In this document: piece by piece, positions 767 to 36,716 of the stretch
Layout of the letters: each line of letters opens with the position of its first letter
Position numbering within the stretch: position 1 is the stretch's first letter
Assembly (NCBI GenBank): GCA_003978485.1
Contig: QNZF01000043.1
Span: forward strand, 1 to 53,246
Direction: 5' to 3'
Length of the DNA stretch: 53,246 nt
From: Persephonella sp.
GTDB taxonomy: Bacteria; Aquificota; Aquificia; Aquificales; Hydrogenothermaceae
Notes under the pieces: model-generated
The model's input: the letters and a program-made list of their open reading frames with translations, nothing else
The model's database searches: none
What the model was told of the DNA's origin: nothing
Made by a program: the position numbers and the translations under genes

Positions 767-1459
767 TTATTTTAATCCTCTTATTAATCCACCAATAACC
801 ATACTAATAATTTCTGCTATGATTTTTTGAGTATCAATGTTTGGTAAAATGTATTCTATAAAAATTTCCTTTGATTTAAGTTTGAATTTTTCCAATAAAA
901 ACTTATAAATATTTTCTTTTAGTTTTTTTAATTTTTCTTCTTCATCTAAATCCGCTAATTCGTTTAAGTTATTAAATAAAAATTCAAAAAAATATCTTAA
1001 GTATTTCTCATTTAATTTAGGAACTTTAATAAATATACCTTTATTTTTATTTATATCGGTGCCAATAAAAATACATGGCAAATAAGAAATAGGTATACCT
1101 AATAATCTAGCATATTTATAACTCCATGCAGGTGAAGGATCAAAAGTTGCTGTATTATCAATAAGATCCCCAAATTTTTTCTTTAAATCTTCTTTAATTT
1201 CATTATCTATTTTATCAGGTTTATATATAGATAAAAATAATATTTTTTCTCCACTCATATAATGTAAATTTTTCCAATTTTTTATCATAAAGTTTTTTAT
1301 AAAATGATCATCTTCTCTTCCCAATAAAATTACATAAAAAGAATATTTAGTTTTTTTTAAAAATTCTTTGAACTTGTCCACATTGGTAGAAAAAATGAAA
1401 GAAATATCCCTTGTCTGTTCTGAAACATCTAAAGGTGCATTATCTTTCTTTTTCATCAT
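767..1459 (-). CDS. hypothetical 230-aa protein, downstream partner of the CHAT protease gene
   Basis: Uninterrupted ORF 31 nt downstream of and co-directional with the CHAT gene. Strong SD (GAAAGGGGGG) about 5 nt before the ATG. Alternating beta/alpha-looking core, then a helical K/E-rich tail ending in hydrophobic IIAEIISMVIGGLIRGLK. No family recognised. Confidence 0.6.
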   Translation of the reverse strand: MMKKKDNAPLDVSEQTRDISFIFSTNVDKFKEFLKKTKYSFYVILLGREDDHFIKNFMIKNWKNLHYMSGEKILFLSIYKPDKIDNEIKEDLKKKFGDLIDNTATFDPSPAWSYKYARLLGIPISYLPCIFIGTDINKNKGIFIKVPKLNEKYLRYFFEFLFNNLNELADLDEEEKLKKLKENIYKFLLEKFKLKSKEIFIEYILPNIDTQKIIAEIISMVIGGLIRGLK

Positions 1460-1490
1460 TATTCCCCCCTTTCATAATATATATTTCTTT

Positions 1491-3824
1491 TTAATCACCT
1501 AAACCTATTAAGAAAAAAGTTCCCCAAAAATAAGGATGCCAACTATAGTCATTTATAATTCTTAATTGTGCTCTTTGTAAAGATTTAGCTTTACTATATC
1601 CTTTTTTTAAATTTTTATAAAATTCTTCAACTAACATATAAGTTGGATAACTTGCTATAGGCAATAAGGTAGCTATAACTGTTCTAGCACCTGCCTTTAT
1701 AAAACTACCAGTCAAACTAATATATTTGATTGAAGGATTTACATCTTCTAAATAAGTAGAACAAGCACTTAAAAAAACTAGCGATGCTTTTATAGTTAAC
1801 ATTTCTATTTCTTGAGGTAGTAAAACACCATCCTCAAACAGAAGGCCATTATAATTTATTAAAATTTTCTCATTTACAGAGTGAGTAGATATATGGATTA
1901 TATTTTTTCCTTCAGCTTCTTTTAGGAAAATATCCTTTTTTGCTGGATAAGGTTGAAAATTACATAGTTTAGCAACCAATTTTGCTTCTTTCTCAGCTAG
2001 CTTTGGTCCTCCTTTTTTTTCAGGTAATCCAATAACTAAACATTTATCGCTATTTTCTTCTTCATTTTTTAAAATTCTAAATACAGATAGCGAAGGAAGG
2101 TAAGCAATAGGAATTTCTTCTATTAAAAAAGTTTCTTCTCCGTTTTCTTTTTTTATTAACGCATGGAATGGAAGTTTAGCAAGTTCACCGTAAGGTATTA
2201 TATAAAGCATTTCCTTATTTTTTATAAATTCATATACAGGTTTAATTAATAAATCATAAGAAATTATTAAATTTTCCTCCGGTTCAAATAAAGAAGAAAA
2301 TTCAGGTATATTATCTTCTAACTCTTTATAACTAGTAAAATTTTCCCTTATTAATATTTGTAAAAATATGTTTAAAATACCTTTAAATAGGTTAATATCC
2401 TTAAATTTAATATCTTTAATATCTAATATCCCTTTGTTATTAATGATAAACATATATATTTTATCCTTTGTTAAAAAATATTCTAATAATAAAGTATTTT
2501 CTGGTATAAGTGAAAAAACATTTTCTTCTTCCAAATTTACAGGATGAGCCTTTAAATAAAAAATTTTAAATTTATTATTTCTAATTAGTAAATCTTCTAA
2601 TGTGCCCAGTTCCTCTAATATTTGGTTAATTCTTAATATATTTAACTCTTCATTTTTATCTTCGGGAATATAGAAACTTAAATAGTTTAATTCTTCAAGC
2701 AATTTTTTTCGTCTATTTGCTAGTTCCTTATTACTTTCTAAATCTAGAGTATTTAGTTTAAGCCTCCAACTTTCTAGAAATACTCTACTGTTTATTTTTT
2801 CCAAGTATTCTAAAGCTTTTTCTTTATATTTTTTTTCTACTTTTCCTAATTCTATACAACAAATCACCATATTTTCGTAAATATATTTATGTTTATTAAT
2901 AAACTCCAGAATTAGTTGAGGAGAAAAAATTTTAAAAATTTTCCTTTCTAATTTTTCTATATATGGCTTTAGTAGATTATAACAATTTTCATATCTTCCT
3001 AAATCTAAAAAAATAGAAGATAAATTTCTATTAATTTCTAATTCAAGATTTTCGTAAATTTCCTTTTTATCTATATTCTTCAACTCATTTTTGGCTAAAT
3101 TTAAGCAATTTATAGATTTACAAAGATTATAATGCCTATACATAGAGGATAGATTTAATAATGAGTAAATTTTTGTTTCCGGGGGACAATCTAAATCTAA
3201 TAATTTTTCAAAAAAAAAGCTTCCTCTTTTTAAATGTTGTTGGGAATTAGATAAATTTTCCTTTAATAAAATACTAATTTTATGCTGATACAAACTTAAA
3301 ATTCCATTCTGTAAATAAAAATCACATACTAAATCTAATTCTTTACTTGATTTCTCTTTAATTTTATCCAGTAAAATTTCTATAATTTTAAAAAAGCCAT
3401 TTACCATTTGAATAATCTTTTTTATCTTTTCATTTCTTTCATTAACGCCTTCATCCTTTATCCCGTACTCATCAATTAGCACCTCTAATTCTGATAAAAG
3501 TTTATCTATTTCTATTAACTTTGATTTTGAGTGATAAAGGAACATATATACGGCATATCTAGATTTAATAATATCTAAACTCTTTAATTTTTTTAAAAAT
3601 ATTTCTCTGTCTTCTATAAATGGAAAAATAGTCTCATTTAAAATTACTGCAGTTTCAATCATAGTATAAAATTCTTTAAACCAACTTTTTGTTTCTTTAC
3701 CTTTTAATAAAGTCTCAAAAGCTTTTAGAACCTTATTATCAATATTAGGAGCAAATTCTGAAATTACATCAAAACCTTCCTTTTTTGATTTTACATTTTT
3801 TAATAAAGTAATAAGATCCAACAT
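1491..3824 (-). CDS. TPR-like repeat / CHAT-domain (caspase-like) protease, 777 aa
   Basis: The C-terminal ~280 aa carries the CHAT His/Cys dyad context (NIIHISTHS ... SLVFLSACSTY) and ends WHPYFWGTFFLIGLG, typical of CHAT domains. The N-terminal ~480 aa is helical-repeat (TPR-like) sequence. Confidence 0.85.
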   Translation of the reverse strand: MLDLITLLKNVKSKKEGFDVISEFAPNIDNKVLKAFETLLKGKETKSWFKEFYTMIETAVILNETIFPFIEDREIFLKKLKSLDIIKSRYAVYMFLYHSKSKLIEIDKLLSELEVLIDEYGIKDEGVNERNEKIKKIIQMVNGFFKIIEILLDKIKEKSSKELDLVCDFYLQNGILSLYQHKISILLKENLSNSQQHLKRGSFFFEKLLDLDCPPETKIYSLLNLSSMYRHYNLCKSINCLNLAKNELKNIDKKEIYENLELEINRNLSSIFLDLGRYENCYNLLKPYIEKLERKIFKIFSPQLILEFINKHKYIYENMVICCIELGKVEKKYKEKALEYLEKINSRVFLESWRLKLNTLDLESNKELANRRKKLLEELNYLSFYIPEDKNEELNILRINQILEELGTLEDLLIRNNKFKIFYLKAHPVNLEEENVFSLIPENTLLLEYFLTKDKIYMFIINNKGILDIKDIKFKDINLFKGILNIFLQILIRENFTSYKELEDNIPEFSSLFEPEENLIISYDLLIKPVYEFIKNKEMLYIIPYGELAKLPFHALIKKENGEETFLIEEIPIAYLPSLSVFRILKNEEENSDKCLVIGLPEKKGGPKLAEKEAKLVAKLCNFQPYPAKKDIFLKEAEGKNIIHISTHSVNEKILINYNGLLFEDGVLLPQEIEMLTIKASLVFLSACSTYLEDVNPSIKYISLTGSFIKAGARTVIATLLPIASYPTYMLVEEFYKNLKKGYSKAKSLQRAQLRIINDYSWHPYFWGTFFLIGLGD

Positions 3825-4037
3825 TATCCTAAAATAATATAATTTTATTAATTAATAGTTAGATTAAGCCAAATTTAATAACAAAAAGCAATGATATTTT
3901 TATACCAAAACAGTTTTAAAATGCTAATTTAAAACATTAGTTGCAAACCGTAGTGATTTTAAGATCCAATAAATAATTAAAATTTTTTATCTCTTAATCT
4001 ATTTCCATAATTGAACCAATCTATTACAGTATTAGTA

Positions 4038-5907: not shown

Positions 5908-7158
5908 GTGAGTAATCATAAATGTTTTTTATGTGGTGTAGAAGAAAAAAAAGCAAACTTAATGTTAGAGCTTCCAAATAATTTGTATGTATGTGATAAG
6001 TGCGTTAATGATTGTTATAAGATAGTTAAAACTGAACTTGAAGAGAAGTTTAGAGAAGGTAAAGATTTAAAGGAATTACCTAAGCCTATAGAAATAAAAA
6101 AGATTTTAGATGAATATGTAATAGGACAGGATAAAGCCAAAAAGCTACTATCTGTTGCAGTTTACAACCACTACAAGAGAATTTTAGCTAAAGAAAAAGG
6201 TCTTAATTTTGATGAAGATGTTGAGATAGAAAAAAGTAATATTCTACTAATAGGACCTACAGGTTCAGGAAAAACTCTTTTAGCTAGGACTTTAGCAAAG
6301 ATTTTAGATGTTCCTTTTGCCATAGCTGATGCAACTAACATAACAGAAGCTGGATATGTTGGTGAAGATGTTGAAAGTATTCTAGTTAGATTAGTTCAAG
6401 CGGCAGATTACGATATAGAGAAAGCAGAAAAAGGTATAGTTTACATAGATGAAATAGATAAAATAGCTAAGAAGAGCGGAGAAAATCCTTCTATAACTAG
6501 AGATGTATCAGGTGAAGGTGTTCAACAGGCATTACTAAAAATTTTAGAGGGAACTATAGCCAACATACCGCCACAAGGTGGAAGAAAACATCCACATCAG
6601 GAGTTTATACAGTTAGATACATCAAACATACTTTTTATACTAGGTGGTGCTTTCGTTGGTTTGGAAGACATAATAAGACAACGTTTAGGTAAGAAATCCA
6701 TTGGTTTTGAGGCAGAAATAAAAACAAAAGAAGAAGAAAAGGATTTATTATCAAAGGTTCAGGTTGAAGATTTAATAAAGTATGGTTTAATACCTGAATT
6801 TGTAGGAAGAATACCTGTTATAGCAACATTAGAAGAATTAGATGAGGAAGCGTTAGTCAGAGTGTTAACTGAACCTAAAAATGCATTGATAAAGCAGTAT
6901 AAAAAATTATTGGCTATGGATGGAGTAGATTTAGAGTTTACCCAAGAGGCATTGAGGGAAATAGCAAAAGAAGCCATAAAGAGAAAGACAGGAGCAAGGG
7001 GTTTAAGAGCTATAGTTGAAGAGATAATGACGGATATAATGTATAAAATACCTTCTATGAAAAGCGTTAAGAAGGTTATAATTGACAAAGATGTCGTTCT
7101 AAAAAAGAAAGAACCAACTATAATAACTGAAGAAAAAGAGAAAAATGCAGTTAGTTAA
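5908..7158 (+). CDS. clpX: ATP-dependent Clp protease ATP-binding subunit ClpX
   Basis: N-terminal zinc finger (CFLCG..CDKC), Walker A GPTGSGKT, Walker [16 protein letters not shown] sensor. GTG start 15 nt after clpP. Confidence 0.97.
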
Positions 7159-7732
7159 AAAATCAAAATTTGTTAAAAGTGCTGTCAATAGGGAGGATTT
7201 TCCTCCCCCAATATATCCAGAAGTTGCAGTTGTAGGTCGTTCAAATGTGGGAAAGTCTTCTATAATTAACGCTATTTTAGGTAGAAATATAGCTAAGGTT
7301 TCATCTTCACCGGGGAAAACTAGACTTATAAACTTTTTCTTAGTAAATGATAATTTTTACTTTGTAGATTTACCGGGGTATGGATTTGCTAAGGTTTCCA
7401 AAAGGGAAAAGGATAAATGGAAGAGAATGATAGAGAATTATTTCCGAACTAGGGAAAATTTAAAATTCGTTATTCTTTTAGTTGATAGTAGGCATAAACC
7501 TACACAGTTAGATATTATGATGAAGGAATGGTTAGAAGCTTTAAATATCCCTTTTATAGTTGTTGGAACAAAGGTTGACAAATTAAATCAAAGCGAAAAG
7601 GCTAAAGCAAAAAAAATTATCAGAGAAACTTTAAATTTAAGTAAGGATATACCTGTATTTTTAACTTCTTCCAAAGAGAAAACAGGGATAAACGAGTTGA
7701 CAAAATTTATTATTGATAATTTAGTAGTTTGA
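7145..7732 (+). CDS. engB: ribosome biogenesis GTP-binding protein YihA/YsxC
   Basis: G1 [10 protein letters not shown]3 DLPGYG and G4 TKVDK motifs. 14-nt overlap with the clpX end. Confidence 0.9.
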
Positions 7733-7775: not shown

Positions 7776-9374
7776 CTACTTTCCAAAACCTCCGTATCCG
7801 CCTCCTCTATATGTAGAGCCTAAACTTCTTCCAAATTTTTCCACTCTTCTTTCAATCTTATACTCTTCTATCTTTTGTTTATCCAAACCATACTTTTTAG
7901 CGTAATCTTCTAAAACTTTTTTTCTTGAGTAATAATCTAACAATTTACCTTTTTTATAATCGTTAGGATAGTTAGGGTCAGGAAGAATAATCTCTGGAAG
8001 TCTATATCTTATTATATACAGGATAGGCAATAAATCTGGATTTGTTATAGTTCCTGAATAGTATGGATTATTTAAAACTTTTGTGTAAATCTCTTTAGGT
8101 TTGATTAATATTTGGTCTTCAAAATATCCTAAAGGTTTAGCCATTACTACAGTATTTAAATATCTAAAAGTATTAAATGTTCTCTCATCAACTTCAACCC
8201 ATTCTACCTTCTTTGGAGTTTTTAAACCTGTTATCTCGTATAGATGGTAATAAACTGGATAAATATCTTCCAAATAAACCTCAAAAGTATTGTCTCCAAC
8301 AGGAATAGAAGGTAGTATATACCTTTCTAATATTTGATAAAGTTCATTATCTTCAATTTTGCAAACCACTGTATAATTTTTACCTTTACATAGATATACA
8401 TCACCTTTTGTTTTTTTCATAAAATTAACTAATCTTTTAAATAATTCCTCTGATATGTTAATTTCCTTATAAAATGAGTGTTCCTCTGGATAATCTAAAT
8501 AATCATCCCAAGAATATACTGAAAATATTGCCTTATAAATAACTTTTTTATCTTTTAACAAGACAAAATAATCTTTATCTAACTCTTTAAATGTATCTTT
8601 AAACTCTCTAAATATACTTAAAATTTCAACACCTATTCCCTCGTTTATAAACTTGCTAAATAGATAAAAGTTATCATTAGAAATTGCAGACTTTATACTG
8701 TTTTTTATTTTAATTAACTTATTCTGATAAAACTTTCCCCTATCTACTATCTCTTTATAGTTAAAGTTATACTCTAAAGCCTTCTGTTCTGTAATCTTTT
8801 GAATGTTGTCAACTATACTGTCAATTTTAGCAATATCTTTTAATAACTCCTGTTTATACCTTTCTTTATTCGCTTTACCATCTTTATAATAAAAAATAAT
8901 CTGTTTTATTCTTTTAATTTCTGTATTTGCAGAATTAACTTTTGTTTTAAAGTTGTTAAGGGCTATACTGTATTTATAATCACAGCTATTTTTACAAAAT
9001 AGCTCACAGTTTTCTGAAGAAAACCTGTTTGGGTCATAGATAGATTTTTCATTTTCTAACTGTTTAATCTTTTCTTCAGTCTGTTTAATTTTCTTCTCTA
9101 AAATTTTATCTAAACCAAATTTTGTTATATATTTAAAATCTGTTTTCTTTAGATTTTCATACTCTTTCTTTAATTGGTTCAGCTCCTCCTTTTCTAAATC
9201 AAGGATAGCAAAGACCCTATCTTTTTTCTCTACCTCATAATCACTTATTATTTTGCAAGGGCTAATAAAAGCTCCATATATGAAGTATAAAAAGAAAGAT
9301 ACTGCTAATAATGAACCGATAAATTTTTTTAATTTAACCGTATTTATAAGATTGTTATCGCCATCTACAAAAGC
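7776..9374 (-). CDS. secreted/lipoprotein-like hypothetical protein (~529 aa) with unresolved start; the track shows only the C-terminal 261 aa (7776..8561)
   Basis: I checked every codon: the minus-strand frame of ORF 7776..8561 continues stop-free up to 9374, with no ATG/GTG/TTG in the first 271 codons. The N-terminus reads ..NTVKLKKFIGSLLAVSFFLYFIYGAFISPC (signal/lipobox-like), followed by a coiled-coil region, a Cys cluster CELFCKNSC and a Gly-rich tail YRGGGYGGFGK. Confidence 0.55.
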   Translation of the reverse strand, partial: AFVDGDNNLINTVKLKKFIGSLLAVSFFLYFIYGAFISPCKIISDYEVEKKDRVFAILDLEKEELNQLKKEYENLKKTDFKYITKFGLDKILEKKIKQTEEKIKQLENEKSIYDPNRFSSENCELFCKNSCDYKYSIALNNFKTKVNSANTEIKRIKQIIFYYKDGKANKERYKQELLKDIAKIDSIVDNIQKITEQKALEYNFNYKEIVDRGKFYQNKLIKIKNSIKSAISNDNFYLFSKFINEGIGVEILSIFREFKDTFKELDKDYFVLLKDKKVIYKAIFSVYSWDDYLDYPEEHSFYKEINISEELFKRLVNFMKKTKGDVYLCKGKNYTVVCKIEDNELYQILERYILPSIPVGDNTFEVYLEDIYPVYYHLYEITGLKTPKKVEWVEVDERTFNTFRYLNTVVMAKPLGYFEDQILIKPKEIYTKVLNNPYYSGTITNPDLLPILYIIRYRLPEIILPDPNYPNDYKKGKLLDYYSRKKVLEDYAKKYGLDKQKIEEYKIERRVEKFGRSLGSTYRGGGYGGFGK

Positions 9375-35903: not shown

Positions 35904-36716
35904 ATGGCAGAGGAGAAAGATTTAAAAAAGGAAAAAGATAAATCTGAAAAAATAATATATGTTTTAACAGGTCTTTTAGTTCTAGTTGTATTTGGAGCTA
36001 TTGCAATACTTTATTTTAAACCTGTTGATAACAAGGAGTTTGTAAAACCTGAAACAATTCAGATTGCAAAGGTTAACGAGCCTAAACCTGTAAACTCTAA
36101 TCAGACTATAAATCAAACTGTGCCTGAAAGTGGTAAAGCTGGAGAGGAAAAACAGAGTGTAAAGGAACAACAGGGTAAACAACCACAAACTATAGGGGAG
36201 ATTATTAAACAAAAAAGTGAGGAGAAAGCTAGTAAAGAAGCTAAAAGAGAGGAAGTAAAGAAGGAAGAACTGCAAAAACAAGCTAGTCAACAGAATAATG
36301 TAGCAACTAATACTGAAAAGAAAGTTAAAGAGGTTAAAAAAACGGAGGAAGTAAAAAAAGTTGAAAAGCCTGTAAAGACAGAGAAAAAAGCTGAAGAGGT
36401 TAAAAAGAAAGAGGAAAAAAAAGCAGTAGCTAAAGTTAATCAAAAGAAAGAGGTTAGCAAAAAAACTCCTGTAAAAAAACATACTGTTAAAAAGTATTAC
36501 TATGTACAGGTTAGTGCGTTAGCGTCAATGGAGAAAGCAAATCAGGTTAAAAGTAGATATGTTAGAAGAGGCTTTAAAAATGTAATTATAATTAAAGAAA
36601 AGGGATTTTATAAGGTATTAATCGGTAAGTTTAACTCTATGAAAGAGGCTAACGAGTTTATAAGAAAGCATAATATTAAAGGTGGTTGGGTAAGAATTTT
36701 AAAAGAGGTTAATTAA
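35904..36716 (+). CDS. SPOR-domain protein with a Lys/Glu-rich linker
   Basis: N-terminal TM anchor, long low-complexity K/E/V linker, and a C-terminal SPOR-like domain (YYVQVSALASMEKANQVKSRY...YKVLIGKFNSMKEANEF). Confidence 0.8.
   Translation: MAEEKDLKKEKDKSEKIIYVLTGLLVLVVFGAIAILYFKPVDNKEFVKPETIQIAKVNEPKPVNSNQTINQTVPESGKAGEEKQSVKEQQGKQPQTIGEIIKQKSEEKASKEAKREEVKKEELQKQASQQNNVATNTEKKVKEVKKTEEVKKVEKPVKTEKKAEEVKKKEEKKAVAKVNQKKEVSKKTPVKKHTVKKYYYVQVSALASMEKANQVKSRYVRRGFKNVIIIKEKGFYKVLIGKFNSMKEANEFIRKHNIKGGWVRILKEVN

Follow-up and report, generated by a model that had tools for sequence, protein, structure and literature searches.

This work concerns two adjacent genes in a 53,246-nucleotide (nt) stretch of DNA (contig QNZF01000043.1; hereafter the window, which always means this whole stretch) from Persephonella sp., a hydrothermal-vent bacterium of the Aquificota. 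The first gene codes for a CHAT protease and the second for a smaller protein, called the partner below, whose family is unannotated in Pfam, NCBIfam, PADLOC and PHROGs. We infer that the two probably make up a new module, serving either conflict or regulated proteolysis. It was singled out in an earlier reading of the DNA made without database searches (the sequence-only reading), which placed both open reading frames (ORFs) on the same strand, 31 nt apart, and assigned a strong Shine-Dalgarno (SD) sequence to the partner; this description is borne out, positions included (Table 1). The two genes are arranged like an operon, and the shortness of the gap, the strength of the partner SD, which stands 4 nt ahead of the partner ATG, and the lack of any terminator-like site in the gap make their co-transcription likely. 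The pair stands among housekeeping genes, namely cdsA, clpPX and a radical SAM gene; each of its two genes is present in a single copy, and no tRNA, tmRNA or Rfam family at the gathering threshold was found across the 53 kb. Hexamers resembling promoter elements are present in the spacer ahead of the CHAT gene, at 3920-3891 and 3851-3823, but no more often than chance would give. The same spacer had been thought to carry copies of dispersed intergenic repeats, but it belongs to no repeat family and shares 12-mers with the rest of the window at 19 positions, against a mean of 23 for other low-GC segments.

Table 1. Features of the CHAT-partner pair in the window, followed by the loci at which the pair was found linked
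Feature	Position	Strand	Basis or remark
CHAT protease gene, first of the pair, 777 residues (caspase superfamily, clan CD)	1491..3824	minus	ORF; Pfam CHAT; full-length archaeal orthologue
N-terminal ~520-residue clade-specific region; presumed helical sensor or scaffold, TPR identity unconfirmed	2259..3824	minus	conserved with the L007 orthologue
CHAT catalytic domain, residues 523-774	1503..2258	minus	Pfam PF12770; clade profile against PDB
Catalytic His region IIHISTHS (H644 codon 1893-1895, H648 codon 1881-1883)	1881..1895	minus	both invariant in alignments
Catalytic Cys688 codon (LSACST)	1761..1763	minus	invariant in alignments
Intergenic gap, 31 nt, with GGGGGG SD at 1464-1469	1460..1490	minus	sequence
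Partner gene, 230 residues, undescribed family with a predicted redox-inactive thioredoxin fold	767..1459	minus	profile search, AF2 model, Foldseek
Disordered N-tail of the partner, residues 1-25, conserved motif D-N-A-P-L-D-V-S-x-Q-T-R-D-I	1385..1459	minus	pLDDT 57-60
Thioredoxin-like core of the partner, residues 39-167, b1-a1-b2-a2-b3-b4-a3	959..1345	minus	AF2 secondary structure
C-terminal K/E-rich helical extension (173-204) and terminal amphipathic helix 210-229 (IIAEIISMVIGGLIRGL)	773..943	minus	AF2, hydrophobic moment
AT-rich spacer upstream of the CHAT gene, 213 nt, 19% GC; presumed promoter region	3825..4037	minus	sequence
Linked loci, same Persephonella lineage	window and L005		
Linked loci, Thermoproteota-type	L003, L006, L022		partners 37-41% identical to that of the window
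Linked loci, archaeal contig	L007, L008		CHAT of 768 residues
Linked loci, 62%-GC bacterium	L009-L012		CHAT of 533 residues

The catalytic domain of the first protein is recognized by Pfam CHAT PF12770 with E 2.1e-40 and 139.5 bits against a cutoff of 24, over profile positions 8-288 of 289. The expectation that the contexts of the catalytic His and Cys are kept proved right, as H644, H648 and C688 are invariant both among ten aligned CHAT proteins that include partner-linked orthologues and outgroups (alignment A5) and in an alignment of the six-member partner-linked clade (A6). Judged by these residues, the catalytic dyad is intact and the protein is predicted to be a competent protease. The closest solved structures to its CHAT domain, as found with the clade profile, are the type III-E Craspase chains 8d9h, 7x8a and 7y83 (E ~1e-9), and the PADLOC model of BovA gives a local match to the active-site region (residues 683-741, E 4.8e-8). 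The N-terminal region is conserved over its whole length in a full-length orthologue from the archaeal contig L007, which is 32% identical over residues 3-777 (E 1.6e-139). About 480 residues of TPR-like repeats had been assigned to this region by the sequence-only reading, and this assignment found no support: no Pfam TPR model matches at E<=1, and alignment of residues 1-316 by hhalign with the TPR regions of four distant homologues (P0006, P0008, P0010 and P0012) yields a probability <1%. A search of the PDB with the A5 profile did return TPR proteins, but these matches were discounted because TPR-bearing outgroups are part of that alignment; when the search was repeated with the clade-only A6 profile, whose trimmed columns represent about residues 290-777 and leave out the N-terminal ~290, only CHAT chains and zero TPR proteins were matched.

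The partner has no match in Pfam (at E<=1), NCBIfam, PHROGs or, by phmmer, among PDB sequences. A PADLOC match to PbeC (E 0.002) was discounted since it is confined to the K/E-rich low-complexity tail. Word-indexed homology searches returned only 4-7 relatives, with four homologues among 5.8 billion clusters, while a profile search run exhaustively over 1.84 billion representatives recovered 163 proteins at E<=1e-3, 37 of them at E<=1e-10, mostly 200-260 residues long. One of the profile matches, the Trypsin-TPR protein P0163, was treated as spurious, being made of 8 short stretches within a TPR region. When 73 family members were supplied to AlphaFold (AF2), the partner was modelled with a pLDDT of 88.9 and a pTM of 0.84, compared to a pLDDT of 66 with five sequences, and this rise in confidence supports the family alignment. 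The model shows a core whose elements are E41-46, H52-69, E73-77, H86-99/112-119, E129-133, E141-145 and H151-167 (E, strand; H, helix). The sole invariant column across the 73 family members is P128 (LPC; codon 1076-1078), which lies at the start of b3, at the predicted cis-Pro position, and the family profile aligns LPC onto the cis-Pro TPT of thioredoxin 5j7d (E 0.015). No CxxC is found at the N-terminus of helix a1, where the partner has R48-E-D-D51 instead and where no Cys is conserved across the 73 members; the domain is thus predicted to be redox-inactive. In the structural comparison by Foldseek, all of roughly the top 50 matches in the PDB and most of those in BFVD are thioredoxin-fold proteins, the leading ones being Wind/ERp29 and the non-catalytic b' domains of PDILT and PDI. 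The best E is 7e-3, with TM-scores of 0.24-0.5, and no Pfam thioredoxin-clan model matches the partner; since no Foldseek match reaches E<1e-3, the assignment is one of fold and not of homology. According to the model, then, the partner is a thioredoxin fold without CxxC, and the earlier opinion that it can be placed in no family stands as far as the sequence libraries go, but not for the structure.

Two parts of the partner lie outside the core. The alpha/beta core, K/E-rich helical tail and final amphipathic helix that had been guessed from the sequence agree with the model, in which a K/E-rich helix (173-192) and a short strand (201-204) precede the terminal helix, and the amphipathic character of the end is borne out by a hydrophobic moment (muH) of 0.50 at a mean hydrophobicity (H) of 0.51. 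The terminal helix is rich in small residues and contains three small-xxx-small motifs. Among 105 single-domain relatives, a C-terminal 19-residue window reaches a Kyte-Doolittle (KD) value of at least 1.2 in 51 and at least 1.6 in 25. At the other end of the protein, the motif of the disordered N-tail is kept in close relatives (P0002, P0003, P0040-42 and the partner of L007), which makes the tail a candidate docking or cleavage peptide. A different determinant of docking or cleavage had been proposed in a PNID motif common to the CHAT protein and the partner, and this one is best ascribed to chance: the two proteins share 10 tetrapeptides versus 7.2 in shuffled sequences (P ~0.2), 99.8% of the shuffles share at least one, and PNID is unconserved in the orthologues of either protein.

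The order of a CHAT gene followed, 31-96 nt further on and in the same orientation, by a partner gene recurs in at least four divergent lineages of Bacteria and Archaea (Table 1), in hosts that span 30% to 62% GC. Each linked CHAT protein has its closest relatives among the other linked ones, the best CHAT protein found in the database search being 26% identical (E 1e-40; its genomic context was not part of the comparison), and the partners, at 30-41% identity, diverge in parallel with them. Since the linked CHAT proteins are closer to one another than to any CHAT of the database search, the pair is likely inherited and transferred as a unit. The two genes have GC contents of 0.219 and 0.240 against a window mean of 0.302 (standard deviation 0.031; z -2.65 and -1.99), with z of about -2.2 for GC at third codon positions, and they are the lowest in GC among the 49 window ORFs of at least 120 residues. 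The pair is therefore more AT-rich than its surroundings, as had been suspected, which supports a recent acquisition in the Persephonella host. The partner family is patchy across the two domains of life and falls into clusters of only 1-4 members; together with the low GC in the window this gives signs that the pair is horizontally mobile. Locus scans with the family alignment A1 found one locus each in genomes and metagenomes and none in viral contigs, and tblastn with four queries gave no match to phage or plasmid collections.

About one quarter of the family representatives are multidomain proteins. The thioredoxin-like domain is preceded by a YukD/ubiquitin-like domain in 6 proteins and by HEAT repeats in others, and it is followed by pentapeptide repeats in a further architecture of the family. 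In P0180 it is followed by a TIR domain matching ThsB (PADLOC E 4e-48), and in P0086 a Peptidase_S78_2 domain and HEAT repeats are fused N-terminally to it, which constitutes an independent linkage to a protease. Across the relatives the core is constant and the C-terminal part varies, being a hydrophobic helix, a ThsB-like TIR domain or pentapeptide repeats. Other distant members stand in gene neighbourhoods of immune or conflict type. At L013:4204-8711 (also in L014-L016), a 149-residue SocA_Panacea protein, a 411-residue protein of no firm family and a 228-residue family member are found with a SIR2 protein matching the PADLOC candidate PDC-S65 (E 4.5e-100). This compact island, which may represent PDC-S65 in a multi-gene form, is flanked by a UvrD helicase and a Pkinase-TPR protein. 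At L017:4868-9329, the family member P0054 stands between a protein with a BsuPI-like protease-inhibitor domain and an OLD/AriA/GajA-like ATPase-TOPRIM nuclease, which is followed by SbcCD-like genes. At L024:4863-13041, a YukD-fused member immediately follows an EAD1-domain protein and precedes bpMoxR, vWA and DUF6744 genes, in an element that also bears integrase, P22_AR_N and HNH genes; this context ties the partner family to the MoxR-vWA ternary conflict systems. Associations of the SIR2, OLD and EAD1/MoxR-vWA types are hallmarks of conflict systems (Kaur et al. 2020, PMC7159879), and neither that work nor its 2021 sequel mentions a thioredoxin-like component. Full-text searches found no literature linking CHAT with a thioredoxin-like partner. 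A separate arrangement is seen at L019:529-5471, where a distant member (P0062) whose C-terminal hydrophobic segment is long and rich in small residues follows a 594-residue protein with a weak LmuA-like match (1e-4) and a 754-residue protein with no match; this may be another uncharacterised system. By HMM, neither these two upstream proteins nor the 411-residue protein of L013 is a relative of CHAT or of its N-terminal region.

The activation of a neighbouring effector by a protease of the caspase superfamily is the basis of immunity by bacterial gasdermins, by Craspase and by type IV Thoeris, and such proteases connect the cell-death pathways of prokaryotes with those of animals. The principle of coupling such a protease to a dedicated neighbour is already known, and the window pair has to be compared with its known embodiments. 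Bacterial gasdermin operons encode a CHAT or peptidase C14 protease, often with repeat or sensor domains, beside a protein of ~230-270 residues, and site-specific cleavage of the latter lifts autoinhibition and leads to membrane damage (bioRxiv 10.1101/2021.06.07.447441). The window pair resembles them in its two-gene logic, in the size of the partner and in the hydrophobic/amphipathic element that the partner contains; it differs in that the partner is predicted to be of the thioredoxin-like alpha/beta kind whereas gasdermins are built of beta-sheet, and in that the protease gene comes first. The gasdermin models of PADLOC and Pfam do not match the partner. In Craspase (gRAMP, TPR-CHAT/Csx29 and Csx30), the CHAT protease, whose N-terminal region is large and helical, cleaves a dedicated neighbour (bioRxiv 10.1101/2022.08.22.504715), and it is the CHAT of this system that is closest by profile to that of the window among solved structures. 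The window CHAT protein, however, has no detectable TPR, its partner shows no relation to Csx30 in the comparisons made, and no gRAMP/Cas7-11, CRISPR array, Csx30/31 or RpoE is present among the neighbouring ORFs or in the window, where no Rfam match was obtained either. The sequence-only reading had seen neither a gasdermin-like nor a CRISPR component at the locus, and the PADLOC, Pfam and Rfam searches and the ORF list agree with it.

Another comparison is offered by the two-gene, membrane-associated EACC1-caspase conflict system ('System 4'), in which a small constant component with a helix of Gly and other small residues is the proposed sensor that activates a caspase-superfamily peptidase (Kaur et al. 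2020, PMC7159879). A small component with a small-residue helix and a caspase-superfamily peptidase are common to both systems, but EACC1 is the 5' gene while the window partner lies 3' of its protease, EACC1 consists of one transmembrane helix plus short extensions while the partner is, by its model, a 230-residue globular thioredoxin-fold protein, and the caspase of the EACC1 system has variable C-terminal effectors, which the window CHAT has not. No EACC1 domain is found in the partner by Pfam at E<=1. Borvo (BovA) likewise employs a CHAT protease in anti-phage defence, and the window CHAT gives the local BovA match noted above; this match, however, is limited to ~55 residues, the model having 720 positions, and is not obtained with the L009 orthologue, and Borvo is a single gene with no thioredoxin-like partner. 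The b' domains of PDI and PDILT and the Wind/ERp29 proteins, which are eukaryotic endoplasmic reticulum chaperones, have the same fold order as the partner and no CxxC, and Wind also has a helical C-terminal domain after its core, but the likeness is at the level of fold only, with no sequence-family relationship to the partner. Because fold, profiles, gene order or accessory genes differ, the pair falls outside the gasdermin, Craspase and EACC1 systems.

How such a pair would work can be proposed with some caution. In the scheme that we tentatively favour, and to which we would give somewhat less than an even chance, the pair is a module gated by its protease: CHAT would dock on the partner and cleave it, freeing a C-terminal output element. 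The module would be horizontally mobile and co-transcribed, and would consist of a cytoplasmic redox-inactive partner and a CHAT protease that bears a large N-terminal region specific to its clade. It would serve as an abortive-infection-type or stress-triggered conflict system gated by the protease. The partner would be held inactive with its terminal amphipathic helix packed on the thioredoxin-like core until a trigger is sensed by the N-terminal region of CHAT, upon which the protease would bind the partner, the conserved disordered N-tail being a candidate docking peptide, and would cleave it, so that the C-terminal output element could act on the membrane. The physical interaction of the two proteins, the cleavage and its site, the action of the helix on the membrane and the role in defence are all parts that we infer. 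The cleavage scheme is favoured because the constant core is joined to an exchangeable C-terminal region, because one relative has a protease fused in cis and because the partner has the stronger ribosome-binding site. The core idea of the sequence-only reading, a CHAT protease with a dedicated unclassified partner as an undescribed conflict-type module, holds up: the partner is not of a housekeeping family, its linkage to CHAT is conserved, the composition of the pair deviates and the catalytic dyad is invariant. The PNID motif, the TPR repeats and the intergenic repeats found no support, and the role of effector that it gave the partner is putative.

Several observations weigh against the cleavage scheme. 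The terminal helix of the window partner, with a KD value of 1.39 over 19 residues, is amphipathic and not a clear transmembrane segment. The closest non-identical homologue of the partner (66% identity) is found on a 7-kb contig (L001) between a BpsA-type polyamine synthase gene and a pyruvate kinase gene with no CHAT anywhere on the contig, the 300 nt upstream of P0004 are non-coding and hold no CHAT, and more distant family members also lack an adjacent CHAT; the first two cases mean that the partner can persist without an adjacent protease. The CHAT-linked loci form no obvious defence island and have housekeeping flanks (besides those of the window, CGI-121 in L007 and a rhomboid gene and ABC transporter genes in L009), while it is the distant members that are TIR-fused or stand beside SIR2 PDC-S65, OLD or EAD1/MoxR-vWA genes. 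The GC of the pair equals that of its flanks in L007 and L009. Gene context was sampled for only ~12 family lineages. Finally, the fusion to a ThsB-type TIR domain fits a role of the core as a sensor at least as well as a role as an effector.

The last point leads to the most serious of the alternatives, which we regard as a real contender, though on the unlikely side: the partner may be a sensor or regulator of the protease and not its substrate. Its cis-Pro groove would bind a peptide or ligand, or its helix would monitor the membrane, and CHAT would then be activated against cellular or invader proteins. As is typical of a sensor or adaptor that serves several effectors, the core is constant and is joined or adjacent to varied effector-type domains (CHAT, ThsB-like TIR, SIR2 PDC-S65, S78 protease); the domains that match it best in fold are non-catalytic and bind peptides (PDILT and PDI b', Wind), and the cis-Pro loop is the only feature that the family keeps invariant. 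The activation of an adjacent caspase by a small component with a Gly-rich helix, as proposed by Kaur et al. 2020 (PMC7159879), would be a precedent. Against this, CHAT already possesses an N-terminal region of ~500 residues that could do the sensing, the stronger ribosome-binding site suggests that the partner is made in excess over the protease, and the fold matches are matches of fold only, none being below E 1e-3.

It seems rather improbable that the pair has nothing to do with conflict and serves regulated proteolysis of a housekeeping or developmental kind, with the partner acting as a chaperone, inhibitor or quality-control adaptor of CHAT. CHAT proteins of the HetF type, which take part in cyanobacterial differentiation, offer a comparison, and the housekeeping flanks in the window, L007 and L009, the equal GC of pair and flanks in two hosts, the absence of matches in phage and plasmid collections and viral contigs and the chaperone nature of Wind/ERp29-like proteins would all fit. 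The window CHAT, however, scores 18 bits against the NCBIfam HetF equivalog, which has a cutoff of 1200, its gene and that of the partner are the lowest in GC in the window, relatives of the partner are TIR-fused or lie beside SIR2, OLD and EAD1/MoxR-vWA genes, and the very patchy distribution in tiny clusters over two domains of life is unlike that of a core housekeeping function. That the adjacency is incidental, the genes functioning independently and being linked only by joint transfer, is quite improbable, for while the 66%-identical homologue and several distant relatives have no adjacent CHAT and only about a dozen lineages were sampled, the same order, strand and short gap recur in 30%-62% GC hosts of Bacteria and Archaea with parallel divergence of the proteins, a strong SD lies inside the 31-nt gap and one relative has an independent protease fused in cis.

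The locus adds a candidate fourth partner type to those of the caspase-superfamily proteases, namely a predicted thioredoxin-fold domain absent from Pfam, NCBIfam, PADLOC and PHROGs, which occurs in both Bacteria and Archaea and also in fusions with TIR, ubiquitin-like and serine-protease modules. It is possible, though we consider it somewhat doubtful, that the partner family is an unnamed immune or conflict domain that forms, together with the CHAT clade, a new protease-activated cell-suicide or defence system that is present in Bacteria and Archaea, thermophiles included, and whose fold is unrelated to those of gasdermin and Craspase, although its mechanism would run parallel to theirs; in this domain a constant redox-dead core would carry an exchangeable C-terminal output, be it an amphipathic or hydrophobic helix, a TIR domain or pentapeptide repeats. 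If validated, it would give a name to a new immune-associated domain family, provide a defined and biochemically tractable pair of a protease and its substrate or regulator from a thermophile, and improve the annotation of ~160 'hypothetical protein' clusters. Should the pair turn out to be of the housekeeping kind, it would still show the thioredoxin fold in a new role that is not redox-based, as the partner of a protease.

Some further observations were made at the locus and its relatives. There is no clean empty-site comparison for the islet formed by the pair, as the neighbours of the radical SAM gene are rearranged in another Persephonella-like genome (L025:8001-9437). There, the orthologous AmmeMemoRadiSam radical SAM gene, a member of the same cluster at >=90% identity, has wholly different neighbours, a DAO oxidoreductase gene upstream and a Polbeta nucleotidyltransferase gene downstream, so the region beside this gene is rearranged among close relatives. 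In L004:846-1005, the last ~75 nt of the gene for a partner homologue are duplicated right after its stop codon with few mismatches, which may reflect an error of assembly or a duplication of a target site or of the 3' end; no Rfam match was found in the 300 nt upstream of this homologue. In the window itself, just past clpX and adjoining a 195-residue GTPase-like ORF (7145-7732), a 261-residue ORF (7776-8561, minus strand) lies in a 1-kb bin with a GC of 0.25; its product has a Gly/Tyr-rich tail (RGGGYGGFGK) and matches no Pfam family at a meaningful E-value, and it may be another acquired gene. Imperfect tandem repeats of the families D1 and D3 occur at 36213-36453 with a spacing of 39-96 nt; they are coding and correspond to a K/E-rich stretch.

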